From assembly GCA_963928055.1 (NCBI GenBank), contig CAWVDN010000001.1, positions 586,441 through 650,440 of the forward strand: a stretch of 64,000 bases of DNA, read 5' to 3'. This document shows, piece by piece, positions 18,944 to 29,947 of this stretch. The notes below the pieces were generated by a model. It was given only the letters and a program-made list of their open reading frames with translations, made no database searches and was not told where the DNA came from. Source of the DNA: Candidatus Scatomonas sp. (GTDB lineage: Bacteria > Bacillota > Clostridia > Lachnospirales > Lachnospiraceae). Each line of letters starts with the position of its first letter. Position 1 is the first letter of the stretch. Position numbers and translations under genes: made by a program.

Positions 18944-21919
18944 TCAGCTGATGATGTACTGGTAAATATCCTCCCGAACCGGAGTGTCCAGATTCCACTC
19001 GATCTCTACTGCCGTCTTGGTGGTGTTGGGCATCTGAAATTCCCGGGTTCGGCCGGTAGCGGCCATTCTTCCCAGGTAATAAAATTCCTTGGAGATCTTG
19101 TCGTCCTTATTCTTCCTCACAAACAGATGAACGTCAATCCCACGCTCCCTGGCGTGCAGGAAGTTCTGAACGTCCTCGGATTCCAGGGACCGGCCGGATT
19201 TGGAAACGGCCATAAGGGTTCCGGTATTGAGGAAATGATCCTCGTACTTGGTGGTGTCGCTGATGTTCTCTTCCTTATGATAATTGATAAAAACCGGAAA
19301 GGTCCTGGTGTTCTTGTCGAATTTGTACCCGCCGATATTCAGGGGCACTTCGTTGTTCTCCCAGTTCAGCAGGCGGCAGACGTCCTCGTAAGTATATTTC
19401 TGATAGAGGACAAATTCCGTATCCTGGTAGCGGAGGCTGAAATTCTGCCGGTACCGGGAAATGCCGAAATCGATAAGCCCCTGCAGAATCTGATAGAATG
19501 CCGGGTTGCCCAGCATGCGGGCAAAGTTACGGGAGATCCCGTACTCCTCCCCTTCCTTCCGGATGAAAACGCAGGTTTCATAGGTTTTCTTTCCGGATCC
19601 GGAAGGAAATTCGTTGGTCATAACATTGACTACATTTTTTCTGGTCTTTTCATCTATGGTAATCCCGTAGTTGTCCCGGAGACTCTTGCTGAGGATCTGC
19701 AAAATCCCATGGCGGTACACCAGCAGACGGTTCAGCATTTCCAGTTCGTGGATCCGTTTGCCTGAGGCCAGCTTCCGGGAGACAAATTCAAGAATCTTCT
19801 CCTCTTCTTTGGACAGGCGCACCGTATATTCCTTCTCGTATTTTACCAGGAACTTGTAGTAAGATCCCAGACTGCTGTTATCAAAAATCCGGCAGACATC
19901 CATTTCCCCGTAGAGGTCAAAATCCTTCAGGGCAGGGATCCGGCCCAGCTTGTATTTCAGATTTGTGTAATTCTCCCGAATCAGCCGGATGTCGCTGAAA
20001 TTGGCGGCGTCAATGGCCGCGAAAATCCGCCGGCGGCTGATCTCGTCGAAATGAATGGTGGACACTCCGGGAATCACCCGGTCTCCCTCCATAACATACC
20101 GGCGCACGTTGTCTTTATTGTAGCTGCGGTCCCCGGAAAGGGCAATGGGGATCAGAAAATTATTTTTATAGTTGCCGATGAAATCCAGGATCACCACAAA
20201 TTCTTTGCCGGGGGATTTCCGAAGTCCCCGGCCCAGCTGCTGGACAAAGACAACAGCAGACTGGGTGGGCCGGAGCATGATCACCTGATTGATCTCCGGA
20301 ATATCCACACCCTCGGAGAAAATATCTACGGTAAAAATATAGTCCAGATAGTCTGCGGTTTCCTTCTGATCCTCCGGCACCTCCATCACCAGGCGCTCAA
20401 TGACTTCCTCCCGGCGGGTCTCGCTGTCCTCTCCAGTGAGGACCTCCGTCCGCAGGCCTCTCTCGTTAAACTTTTTGGAAAGCAGCCGGGCCTCCTCCTT
20501 GCGGCTGCAAAAAACCAGACCTTTGACCCGGTTTCCGCTGTGGCCGTAATAGGACGCCTGTTCCAGCACATAATCCACCCGGTGGTCGCTGACCAGCCGG
20601 TTAAAATCCCGAAAATCCCCCTCCTCATCGCCAATGGCCCGGCCGTCAATGGTAAGATCCGTGATGCCAAAATAGTGGAACGGACAGAGCAGATCCTCCT
20701 CCAATGCCTGCTGCAGACGAATTTCGTAGGCGATGTTATGATCAAAAATCTCATATACATCAAAACGGTTAGTTTCCGGGCTGGCCGTCATGCCCAGCCA
20801 GAAATCCGGCCGGAAATAGTCCATAATCTTCCGGTAGCTTTCCGCGCCGGAATGATGGGCCTCATCCAGGCAGATAACCGTGAACTGCTCCGGAGAAAAA
20901 GCTTCCCGCACGGAATCCCGACTCATCATCTGCATAGTAGCAAAAACCAGATCCGCCTGGCAGATGGATTCCAATTCCCCGGACGTGCGGCCGGAAAGCA
21001 AGGCGTAACGCCAGGGCGAACCGTCGTCCTTCCGGGGGCCAAAGACTTTCTGATAACTGGCCAGTGCCTGCCGGGCAATCTGCTCCCGGTGCACCAGAAA
21101 CAGCACTTTTTTCGGATGCATGTCCCGGAGAGCAAAGGCGGAGGCATAGGTTTTACCGGTTCCGGTGGCAGAAATCAGCAGCGCCCGGCGGGCTCCCTGC
21201 CGCACCAGCTTGCGAATATTTCTCACGAACGCCGTCTGCATGACATTAGGCTGCAGACGGTACTGCTCCAGAGACACCGGTACGGTCTCCCTGGCAACCT
21301 GCTTCTGTTTCTTCACCAGCGCATATCTGACCCGGTAATCCTCAATAAACTCCTCATATGCCAGGCTGTTGGTATCCTCCCAAAGAGAACGAAATTCCTG
21401 AAGAATGTCTCCCACCACTTCTCCGGTTTCCAATCCCACCAACTTGGTGTTCCACTCCCGATTCACCTTCAGAGCACCGGCAGTCATGTTGGCACTGCCA
21501 ATGATGATCCGGTAAATCTCTTCCTTCCGAAAAATATATCCTTTGGTATGAAATCCATCCTTATATCCATGAGTCACAAACATCTTCAGTTCAATATTTT
21601 TCAGGGAATGCAGCTTGTCCAGGGCCGCCGGATCATTAAACGCCAGATAATCCGTGGTGAGAATCTTCCCCGGAATCCCCCTGCGCTCTAATTCTTTCAA
21701 CGTCTGCAATAAGGGGGTAATCCCGCCCAAAGTAATAAACGCCACACTGATATAGAACTCCTGACAATTCAGGAGTTCCTGTTCCACTGCAGAAATCACT
21801 CTCTTGCCCTGACGGTAATCGTTGGAGACAAACTCCGGGCGGTACGCCAGGTTAGAGGGAATAGATTGGTTGATAAAGGCCGTTTCCAGGCCGTGTTGGA
21901 GGTTTGTTTGGTTATTCAT
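18944..21919 (-). CDS. PLD-domain / DExH helicase / DUF3427 protein (putative restriction-like nuclease-helicase)
   Basis: 991 aa; FHTKGY...GSANMT PLD motif, ATGTGKT, DEAHH, QQLGRGLR, DUF3427-type C-terminus. Confidence 0.9.
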   Translation of the reverse strand: MNNQTNLQHGLETAFINQSIPSNLAYRPEFVSNDYRQGKRVISAVEQELLNCQEFYISVAFITLGGITPLLQTLKELERRGIPGKILTTDYLAFNDPAALDKLHSLKNIELKMFVTHGYKDGFHTKGYIFRKEEIYRIIIGSANMTAGALKVNREWNTKLVGLETGEVVGDILQEFRSLWEDTNSLAYEEFIEDYRVRYALVKKQKQVARETVPVSLEQYRLQPNVMQTAFVRNIRKLVRQGARRALLISATGTGKTYASAFALRDMHPKKVLFLVHREQIARQALASYQKVFGPRKDDGSPWRYALLSGRTSGELESICQADLVFATMQMMSRDSVREAFSPEQFTVICLDEAHHSGAESYRKIMDYFRPDFWLGMTASPETNRFDVYEIFDHNIAYEIRLQQALEEDLLCPFHYFGITDLTIDGRAIGDEEGDFRDFNRLVSDHRVDYVLEQASYYGHSGNRVKGLVFCSRKEEARLLSKKFNERGLRTEVLTGEDSETRREEVIERLVMEVPEDQKETADYLDYIFTVDIFSEGVDIPEINQVIMLRPTQSAVVFVQQLGRGLRKSPGKEFVVILDFIGNYKNNFLIPIALSGDRSYNKDNVRRYVMEGDRVIPGVSTIHFDEISRRRIFAAIDAANFSDIRLIRENYTNLKYKLGRIPALKDFDLYGEMDVCRIFDNSSLGSYYKFLVKYEKEYTVRLSKEEEKILEFVSRKLASGKRIHELEMLNRLLVYRHGILQILSKSLRDNYGITIDEKTRKNVVNVMTNEFPSGSGKKTYETCVFIRKEGEEYGISRNFARMLGNPAFYQILQGLIDFGISRYRQNFSLRYQDTEFVLYQKYTYEDVCRLLNWENNEVPLNIGGYKFDKNTRTFPVFINYHKEENISDTTKYEDHFLNTGTLMAVSKSGRSLESEDVQNFLHARERGIDVHLFVRKNKDDKISKEFYYLGRMAATGRTREFQMPNTTKTAVEIEWNLDTPVREDIYQYIIS

Positions 21920-21939
21920 TTTTTCATCCTGGTTGCTTT
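21870..21939. repeat. 70-bp direct repeat, copy 1 (contains the helicase start codon and first 17 codons)
   Basis: 67/70 identical to 29878-29947. Confidence 0.95.
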
Positions 21940-22025
21940 ATTTTTAGGGTTTCAATTTTATTATGCGATTTTTTTTTACTCTTTTAAAGTGGTTTTTGCT
22001 CTGCCGAAAAATATATGTAAATAAA

Positions 22026-22147
22026 TAGATCTGTTCCCTAGTACTGGCTGGCACGAGAGGACAGAAAGTACGTCATTTGCCGGGCGGTTCCTCCGACTTG
22101 ATCCACCGCTGTTTTACTCTCTGGAAACGTAGCCGGGAACATATCTA
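22026..22147 (-). other. Long imperfect hairpin in the leader of the helicase gene
   Basis: TAGATCTGTTCCC / GGGAACATATCTA (12 of 13 complementary) with inner GGCT/AGCC, GAGAG/CTCTC and GCGGT/ACCGC stems. Confidence 0.55.
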
Positions 22148-29438: not shown

Positions 29439-29745
29439 TCATGGTCTCCTTATATCTGCGTTTAAAATCAATGAGATTCATAATCTCTTTCCGATCCATA
29501 TCAGACAACTCTGAAAAAGCACGGGCAAACATCTCTACCTGCGCATCACCAGATGTCTTCCCATACATTAATTCGTCAACGCTTACTCCATACAATTTAG
29601 AAAATCCCGCAAGTTCCTCTGCTGTAACTTTTCTCTGTCCGGATTCAATCGCGCTGATCGTTGGTCTGGAAAGATGCATCTGACGAGCAACAAACTCCTG
29701 TGATAACTTCAAATATTTCCTTGCTTCCTTTAATCTCTCATGCAT
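29431..29745 (-). CDS. Xre-family HTH regulator overlapping the peptidase-Fic start
   Basis: MHERLKEARKYLKLSQEFVARQMHLSRPTISAIESG; GGAGG RBS. Confidence 0.9.
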   Translation of the reverse strand: MHERLKEARKYLKLSQEFVARQMHLSRPTISAIESGQRKVTAEELAGFSKLYGVSVDELMYGKTSGDAQVEMFARAFSELSDMDRKEIMNLIDFKRRYKETMNG

Positions 29746-29877
29746 GGAATTCACCTCCTCTGTAAATAAGTATATGCAAATTCGCTTTGAAAGCCAACAG
29801 TAAATGTCAGATTTTCTGACATTTTTGTAGTTAAACAGATGAGTGATATCGTGTAAACAGATCAATAGTACTTTCTA

Positions 29878-29947
29878 TTGATAAAGGCCGTTTCCAGGCC
29901 GTGCTGGAGGTTTGTTTGATTATTCATTTTTTCATCCTGGCTGCTTT
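29878..29947. repeat. 70-bp direct repeat, copy 2 (orphan helicase 5' end, MNNQTNLQHGLETAFIN then RKYY*)
   Basis: 67/70 identical to 21870-21939. Confidence 0.95.

Follow-up and report, generated by a model that had tools for sequence, protein, structure and literature searches.

A 64,000-nt stretch of the Candidatus Scatomonas sp. genome (Lachnospiraceae; GenBank assembly GCA_963928055.1, contig CAWVDN010000001.1, positions 586,441 to 650,440; hereafter the window) contains an 8008-bp block of defence genes lodged within the first codons of a SauUSI-like type IV restriction gene. The block is a genuine presence/absence polymorphism in the Candidatus Scatomonas population, and its insertion leaves the restriction gene complete because it carries a 186-bp segment at its right-hand side. 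With slightly better than even confidence, the sequence evidence favours an origin as a mosaic remnant of a serine-recombinase prophage or related element, whose defence cassette would have been captured together with a piece of flanking DNA and inserted by homologous recombination, not by the recombinase. The block is probably no longer self-mobile.

The direct repeat and the empty allele

A repeat search of positions 20000-32000 returned one long direct-repeat family, in which 21870-21961 and 29878-29969 align over 92 nt at 89% identity with a spacing of 8008 bp; there are three mismatches in the first 70 nt. The runner-up family measured 32 nt at 72% identity, placing the 92-nt repeat far above chance. 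Both copies lie on the minus strand, as do all genes around them, and both carry GGATGAAAAAATG together with 17 codons. The right-hand copy (copy B) leads into the full restriction gene. The left-hand copy (copy A), starting from an ATG at 29927, reads MNNQTNLQHGLETAFIN, then RKYY and a stop, so that the stub open reading frame (ORF) closes four codons past the repeat. The two copies show 31% identity, as expected at random, upstream of the right-hand element end described below, 66.7% over the 105 columns from that end to position -26 (the promoter region), 88% at -25 to -1 and 96% at +1 to +50. Decayed similarity can be traced to the stop codon of the upstream GNAT acetyltransferase gene, giving about 260 bp in total. 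The repeat search and translations thus bear out what the initial annotation had described, namely 70-bp direct repeats 8008 bp apart that contain the ATG and 17 codons, a stub copy stopping four codons later and weaker similarity upstream of both start codons. Scans of the junction regions with Rfam and for tRNA genes gave no matches.

The target gene had been annotated as a helicase, which is correct for its superfamily 2 (SF2) helicase domain and too narrow for the protein. A single polypeptide combines a phospholipase D (PLD) nuclease, the SF2 helicase and a DUF3427 reader, which is the architecture of SauUSI (PMC3141236), and the PADLOC model matched is one for type IV methyl-directed restriction (5e-217); modification-dependent cleavage is predicted on this basis. 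An exact-protein look-up of the 991-aa protein returned the same arrangement only.

An exact-protein look-up of the GNAT acetyltransferase that precedes copy A gave ten contexts from gut metagenome assemblies, all from the same Candidatus Scatomonas population, and these and other genomes were compared with the window through alignments. All ten contexts have a left flank of fatty-acid synthesis genes, MarR, ArsP, a RumA/TrmA-family methyltransferase and the GNAT gene. The search for an empty site in relatives, a check named beforehand, was successful: in two metagenome contigs (L088 and L093) the GNAT gene is followed by a 204-bp spacer with a resident promoter (promoter A) and then by an intact restriction gene, which also encodes 991 aa and is 97.6% identical to the window gene at the nucleotide level. 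Up to and including codon 17, this empty allele is the same as copy A, both diagnostic bases included; beyond that point it reads into the gene. As it follows the A-type single-nucleotide polymorphisms (SNPs) into the gene, the breakpoint lies within 26 bp, CACGGCCTGGAAACGGCCTTTATCAA (21870-21895, equivalent to 29878-29903), a window that must hold the crossover and ends in codon 17. The remaining eight contexts are occupied, and their left junction, ...TTTATCAA/TAGAAAGTACTATTGATCTG, is identical. The right-hand module preceding the ATG is likewise the same in every allele whose right side was seen (the window, L089, L090, L095, L018/L019 and the sister genome G002, also Candidatus Scatomonas sp.).

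Promoter B and the right-hand repeat are linked to the occupied state, including G002, and are absent from the empty allele, while promoter A accompanies the empty state; the 991-aa ORF is kept in both. Gene bodies are 97.3-98.9% identical across all alleles. Given this high identity, the 66.7% identity of the promoter regions and the linkage of promoter B to the block indicate that the start of the gene and its promoter were replaced by foreign DNA arriving with the block. The proposal of integration into the 5′ end of the gene with reconstitution of its start and promoter therefore stands as regards structure and population polymorphism; a role for the recombinase at the repeats is unlikely.

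Restriction-gene alleles are mosaic. L090 matches the empty haplotype over approximately nt 700-1300 and 2300-2850, yet departs from it at 15 positions within the first 180 nt, evidence of active homologous recombination at the locus. One metagenome allele (L086/L128) has a deletion extending from just past the Xre gene into DUF3427, which destroys the restriction gene and leaves a 121-aa fragment. No second truncated 5′ copy was found in G002. Its corresponding interval (G002:C1:2374631-2411977; L013-L015) spans 37 kb without the GNAT gene or stub copy, and encodes an endolysin-like glucosaminidase with SH3, SHOCT, an IstB-like ATPase, TelA and recombinase fragments; it probably represents a fuller prophage or a stack of elements.

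A recombinase family with a rumA target

The right end of the block was defined by comparison with another genus. G213 carries the same recombinase, AAA and S8 module as G002, and the identity of the two ends at ...AAATGACGTACTTCCTGTCCTCTCGTGCCA. The same 26-30 nt lie at 22049-22074 in the window, which places the element end 130 bp upstream of the ATG. This sequence, the P arm, was found with up to two mismatches in 12 of 401 Lachnospiraceae genomes, representing 12 different genera (none for a reversed-pattern control), and in five IMG/VR contigs, some of them 48-51 kb long and 98-100% complete. In the aligned copies, approximately 85-100 nt are conserved up to a terminal GTGCCA, beyond which the flanks diverge.

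As read from the aligned flanks, the DNA beginning at the CA translates in most genomes as the C-terminal tail of a RumA-type methyltransferase: CAT GTG GAG ACT GTG TGC CTT TTA (HVETVCLL) in G213, HVETVVLL in G234, HMETVVLL in G328, G022 and G245, and HVECVVLMSR in the viral contigs. Three genomes (G245, G124 and G028) also contain the body of a rumA-like gene, on the same contig and strand and 12-23 kb upstream, and at this upstream end the element provides a replacement HVETVVLL... tail. The rumA flanks and the upstream gene bodies with replaced tails indicate that the family targets the 3′ end of rumA; it would thus be a family of gene-restoring serine-recombinase elements directed to the HVE codons, with a cargo slot beside attR. 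Between the window recombinase and the cargo-adjacent enzyme of these rumA-targeting elements, identity is 79-95%, and many family members also have a partner recombinase (44-47% identical). In two canonical members (L138 and L139, from G245 and G124), the rumA tail becomes HVETVVLLS and continues into a conserved extension of approximately 100 aa (…SNLYISQIKRKCGIEVGKNYNLPKSEDSRQPQCP…).

The stretch from the P arm to codon 17 (186 bp) is not part of the canonical element and comprises a type II arm, promoter B, the start codon and the 17 codons. Copies of the type II arm, followed by unrelated DNA, occur in two further genera (G286 and G150). By inspection, this arm mirrors the VDMFP motif and, like it, stands 10 nt from the CA; we take it to be a putative secondary attachment half-site. 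The VDMFP codons of RumA-type genes are also copied at the start of the conserved right-end unit (22049-22145), which folds together with the type II arm into a long hairpin. The type II arm was also considered as the family's P′ arm, forming an intact attP with the P arm, and rejected: none occurs near type I elements, and in G245 and G124 the true left ends mimic rumA tails. Matches to the sigma-70 consensus underlie the promoter predicted in region B (Table 1), a stronger site between the LmuB stop and the element end (TTGACA-18-TATATT, 22181-22152, 11/12) and a promoter-like site ahead of the Xre gene of the left module (29797-29769). The stronger site, at the end of the Lamassu operon, faces the restriction gene, with the element-end hairpin in between.

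The window's own RumA/TrmA-family methyltransferase bounds the island, and homology between the window (G000) and G002 stops within its last codons (at about 31172), from which it follows that the interval between the methyltransferase and the restriction gene is an insertion hot spot for the family. The motif GATATG-N0-3-TTCCC-N4-6-CGA has two matches in the window against none expected, one at the methyltransferase 3′ end (31202-31221) and one overlapping the GNAT stop codon (30117-30139); window unit B has CGT for CGA, and the exact motif therefore finds that unit in other alleles only. When aligned with eight right ends, the GNAT-proximal spacer proved to be a decayed copy of the whole right-end unit, and the GNAT gene with this decayed unit is also present in the 'empty' allele. 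Since a decayed whole unit stands behind the GNAT gene, the 'empty' allele itself appears to be the fossil of an earlier round, composed of the methyltransferase, approximately 590 bp, the GNAT gene, a decayed element end, promoter A and the restriction gene.

The last methyltransferase codons (31165-31221) vary between the window and its close relatives G002, G006 and G008, ending in ...VKVGRM, ...VKVGRKII, ...CLLKSNK or ...CMLSKIRDWQKRR before the stop. Repeated replacement of the tail by integrating elements would produce such a pattern. The left end of the block would complete the methyltransferase ORF as ...GRKYY and a stop if joined there, an attractive but unproven possibility.

How the block may have been inserted

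On the favoured reading, a prophage-derived cassette would have captured 186 bp of downstream flank in another lineage, comprising a helicase promoter and 17 codons. This capture may have been a one-off illegitimate event that closed codon 17 onto TAGAAAG inside a palindrome, for which TATCAA/ATCAA microhomology may have served. The resulting circular or transferred molecule, consisting of the element, the P arm and the 186-bp flank, would then have recombined with the resident gene start through a single Campbell-type homologous crossover within 26-75 bp of near-identical 5′ sequence, forming a joint that would be reversible by the same homologous route. Insertion in the first 50 bp leaves the restriction gene complete and now under imported promoter B; the resident promoter A and its 17 codons remain as a stub reading toward the Xre gene of the block. 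The slot between the recombinase and the right end is freely exchanged, which places different defence systems in different strains.

The initial annotation implied that the adjacent recombinase acts on both junctions, a claim that the comparisons do not uphold: the family end stops at 22049, the family's target is a RumA-type 3′ end, the canonical left end is absent from the block and no half-site symmetry is seen at codon 17. Indeed, only one end of the block is a recognizable family attachment arm, present at 22049-22074; the canonical left end, a rumA-tail mimic, is missing. Neither the left end that is present, TAGAAAGTAC, nor the Xre/ImmA-Fic module had a counterpart among relatives or in IMG/VR, and no IMG/VR relatives were found for the Xre protein of this module. 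As a candidate shared element end, TAGAAAGTACTATTGATC was rejected, as it had no above-chance match in ten related genomes and none in G002 or IMG/VR. Symmetric half-sites around codon 17 with a GC, CA or AG core were likewise discarded, giving partial and inconsistent matches only. The exact empty site is 130 bp away from the family attachment arm. The joint was probably not made by the recombinase, because the arm is offset by this distance, codon 17 has neither half-site symmetry nor a family motif, L090 has both junctions without a recombinase gene, and the half-site rule for attP and attB would be violated.

Several observations weigh against capture followed by homologous insertion. No donor configuration, in which an element with this left end stands beside the original flank, was found; the Xre gene follows the GNAT gene and stub in 10 of 10 contexts. 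The dinucleotide CA, the likely crossover core of the family, is present at the junction (TAT(CA)AT), and both the invariance of the left junction among occupied alleles and the two generations of 'unit, promoter and 17 codons' ending at one position of the gene could point to a site-specific process. The occurrence of the type II arm in G286 and G150 suggests that the recombinase can use sites other than rumA. Some large serine recombinases (Ccr and TnpX) tolerate attachment sites that share long identity.

One broader reading of the stacked generations is tentative: the 5′ end of the type IV restriction gene might be a reusable landing pad, to which each cassette brings a promoter and 17 codons while pushing the older promoter and stub upstream. 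It is similarly doubtful, if conceivable, that the incoming Xre regulator is thereby placed behind the resident promoter and that defence systems stack and turn over at this one gene start through a mechanism that can recur, possibly with the recombinase's help. With the same low confidence, the decayed unit next to the GNAT gene in the 'empty' allele might be the previous generation.

A self-mobile block is an unlikely explanation. The serine recombinase would integrate site-specifically into a secondary attB at codons 9-17 of the restriction gene, with an attP formed by promoter B and the 17 codons joined to TAGAAAGTAC, and excision by the same enzyme would restore the empty allele. The exact empty site, the invariant left junction, the CA at the joint and the two stacked generations, which suggest a repeatable process, are all compatible with this scheme, and the recombinase looks intact. 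Ccr recombinases provide a precedent, with approximately 18 bp shared between attB and attSCC and tandem arrays that carry defence cargo (PMC11470126). However, the family arm stops at 22049 and not at the repeat, G245 and G124 have a rumA-tail mimic as their canonical attP/attL, which does not resemble TAGAAAGTAC, and inspection of the sequence around codon 17 revealed neither symmetry nor the family motif. The retention of both junctions in L090 without a recombinase gene, the absence of the left-end 24-mer and Xre gene from IMG/VR phages, and the standard large serine integrase model, which disallows an identical half-site in attP and attB, also argue against it.

It is improbable that the polarity is reversed, with the occupied state being older and the 'empty' allele arising by RecA-dependent deletion between the 5′ copies, in which case no insertion into an intact gene would have occurred in this lineage. 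Occupied alleles do predominate (8 of 10 contexts; the Xre protein is present in 689 index blocks versus 341 for GNAT), empty alleles share promoter-A haplotype 1 with the occupied L087 and L091, and a 75-bp repeat of 96% identity is sufficient for deletion. Nevertheless, the A-type bases at both diagnostic SNPs of the empty allele would confine the deletion crossover to the last 26 of the 75 bp, G002 lacks any copy A, and the origin of the composite joining codon 17 to TAGAAAG would still be required. Least probable is the view that the helicase 5′ region was duplicated in tandem long ago, with no mobile element and unrelated DNA accumulating later: although the repeats are direct, in the same orientation and accompanied by approximately 260 bp of decayed similarity, a single duplication date cannot give identities from about 31-67% up to 96% inside one 260-bp unit, the right copy continues physically into a conserved phage-family end that 12 genera share, and there is a clean empty allele.

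Block contents, known systems and neighbouring genes

The features of the locus are listed in Table 1. The Lamassu assignment is based on PADLOC matches for SMC-like LmuB (PDLC03863, 2.9e-104), LmuC (PDLC03871, 6.3e-22) and LmuA (PDLC03852, 5.6e-30), which are encoded in one operon. The GC content is 0.32 for the Lamassu genes, 0.53 for the recombinase and 0.6 for the host flanks. In addition to its domain matches, the recombinase has the YCRVST serine motif, which is invariant in an alignment of 11 family members. Its first codons and upstream sequence (27880-27934) are DNA-identical to a 520-aa partner recombinase in L094/L087, and the remainder matches a 523-aa type (87%); the single 512-aa gene looks as if a deletion had fused two tandem recombinase genes. 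The ImmA-like and Fic ORFs of the left module (28134-29438) appear to be a single gene broken by an in-frame stop right after a HELCHH motif, and the length of the Fic ORF differs among alleles (236, 283, 309 or 325 aa).

Table 1. Features of the restriction-gene locus, in window coordinates.
Feature	Position	Strand	Details
SauUSI-like type IV restriction enzyme (target gene)	18944..21919	-	Intact, 991 aa; PLDc_2, ResIII/Helicase_C, DUF3427; PDLC03658 5.4e-217
Repeat copy B	21870..21961	-	Ribosome-binding site, ATG 21919, 17 codons in frame with the full 991-aa gene
Imported promoter region B	21920..22048	-	Type II arm GCCAGTACTAGGGAACAGATC (22048-22028, 21 nt); sigma-70-like site TTTAAA-17-CATAAT (21988-21960)
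Conserved right-end unit of serine-recombinase family	22049..22145	-	Begins with rumA-tail-like motif (GATATGTTCCC...); ends with P arm GACGTACTTTCTGTCCTCTCGTGCCA (22074-22049)
Lamassu cargo	22238..25714	-	LmuA 24755-25714; LmuC 24237-24743; LmuB 22238-24265
Xre-type helix-turn-helix (HTH) gene and small ORF, ahead of LmuA	25711..26285	-	Xre-type HTH 26022-26285; 69-aa ORF 25711-25920
Large serine recombinase	26382..27920	-	512 aa; Resolvase 1.8e-34, Recombinase 1.5e-23, Zn ribbon 1.1e-12
Left module	28134..29745	-	Xre HTH 29431-29745 (104 aa); ImmA-like fragment 29148-29438 (96 aa); Fic ORF 28134-29063
Left junction	29861..29882	-	...TTTATCAA/TAGAAAGTAC...; inside perfect 8+6+8 palindrome ATCAATAG-AAAGTA-CTATTGAT
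Repeat copy A and stub ORF	29862..29969	-	Copy A 29878-29969; stub ORF 29927 down to 29862; behind resident promoter A
GNAT acetyltransferase and decayed right-end unit	30030..30576	-	GNAT 30133-30576; unit ~30139-30030 (GATATGATTTTCCCACTTATCGA ... TGGATCAA ... CAGATCC)
RumA/TrmA-family methyltransferase (island boundary)	31165..32325	-	Tail with VDMFP motif copied by element unit

The content of the slot between the recombinase and the right-hand module differs by strain, with at least six defence sets in one species. It consists of Lamassu in the window and L089, a 459-aa protein with GmrSD in L095, SMODS and S_4TM without any recombinase gene in L090, an AAA ATPase with an S8 subtilase in G002, Dcm with GmrSD_N and HEPN in L087, an N6-MTase with SLATT, PRTase-CE and an ORC/CDC6-like protein in L092, and a DUF6338 protein in L018; in L091 and L094 the slot holds non-defence biosynthetic genes. 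The suggestion that one defence gene serves as the landing site for other systems is thus well founded, and 'recombinase-linked defence-cassette hot spot' is the most fitting description of the locus.

The nearest mechanistic analogue would be the staphylococcal cassette chromosome (SCC) and SCCmec-like cassettes, in which Ccr large serine recombinases act at the 3′ end of rlmH and tandem cassettes carry anti-phage systems (PMC11470126). Both involve large serine recombinases, which in other alleles of this locus are paired (520 and 523 aa, 46% identical; ccrA/ccrB-like by analogy), and both stack successive generations of elements at a single locus and carry defence cargo that varies widely. 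The canonical relatives of the window element insert at the 3′ end of an rRNA/tRNA methyltransferase gene and restore that end; in the window, the RumA-family gene bounds the island and the studied repeat is in the restriction gene. In contrast to SCC, this repeat is at a 5′ end and includes a promoter, it measures 75-92 bp (approximately 260 bp with the decayed part) and not the 15-18 bp of SCC or any length in the 15-20 bp range, and the recombinase has its own site elsewhere.

Other comparisons are more distant. SPbeta in spsM and skin in sigK are serine-recombinase elements that split host genes (PMC5499854; PMC5025042) and, like the block, combine a large serine recombinase and a position within a coding sequence with an exact empty site; in those cases the gene is interrupted and rebuilt by excision, whereas here it is intact with the block present by virtue of the imported promoter and start. 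The RADS study showed that serine recombinases mark anti-phage defence systems, leaving the role of the recombinase open and describing no attachment sites (PMC12632615). The direct succession of recombinase and variable defence cargo is common to both, while the element end, the usual rumA target and the cargo slot are mapped here. A limited literature search turned up no account of an insert that preserves the gene it enters by supplying a promoter and start codon. Other integrative elements restore the 3′ end of their target, including those at tRNA genes and the rumA-targeting integrative and conjugative elements of Firmicutes. The block resembles these in carrying a copy of the target end and preserving its function, as the canonical relatives of the window recombinase do at rumA, but the restored end is the 5′ one, which needs a promoter, ribosome-binding site and start codon, and the restoring segment looks like captured flank rather than a designed part of attP.

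Defence islands turn over at hot spots and serine recombinases mark defence systems; this locus offers a concrete population-level example of the connection. Its unusual outcome is that an insert within the first codons keeps the gene working through an imported promoter and start. If the process is repeatable, it would show that one immune gene can host others without being lost and would be a source of natural, swappable 'promoter and start' junction sequences; if it was a one-off capture spread by homologous recombination, it would be a clear case of flank capture rendering an insertion harmless.

Elsewhere in the window, positions 2276-10786 hold a complete type I-C CRISPR-Cas operon (Cas3, Cas5d, Csd1, Cas7, Cas4 and Cas1) with an AAA_14/DUF4143 ATPase gene ahead of it, and the G002 locus has nothing corresponding to this region. 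The restriction gene is followed downstream (13597-18921) by a run of small nucleotide-signalling or repair-type genes, encoding NUDIX, LigT 2′-5′ RNA ligase-like, DUF1848 and flavin reductase proteins as well as a second Fic, a PriA-3′BD-like ORF and a RelA_SpoT small alarmone synthetase; this run is partly variable among alleles (L086, L088 and L090). Between the flavin reductase and DUF1848 genes (16337-16616) lies a non-coding repeat of approximately 280 bp, which resembles a miniature inverted-repeat transposable element and occurs in more than 40 copies across G002 at 95-100% identity.

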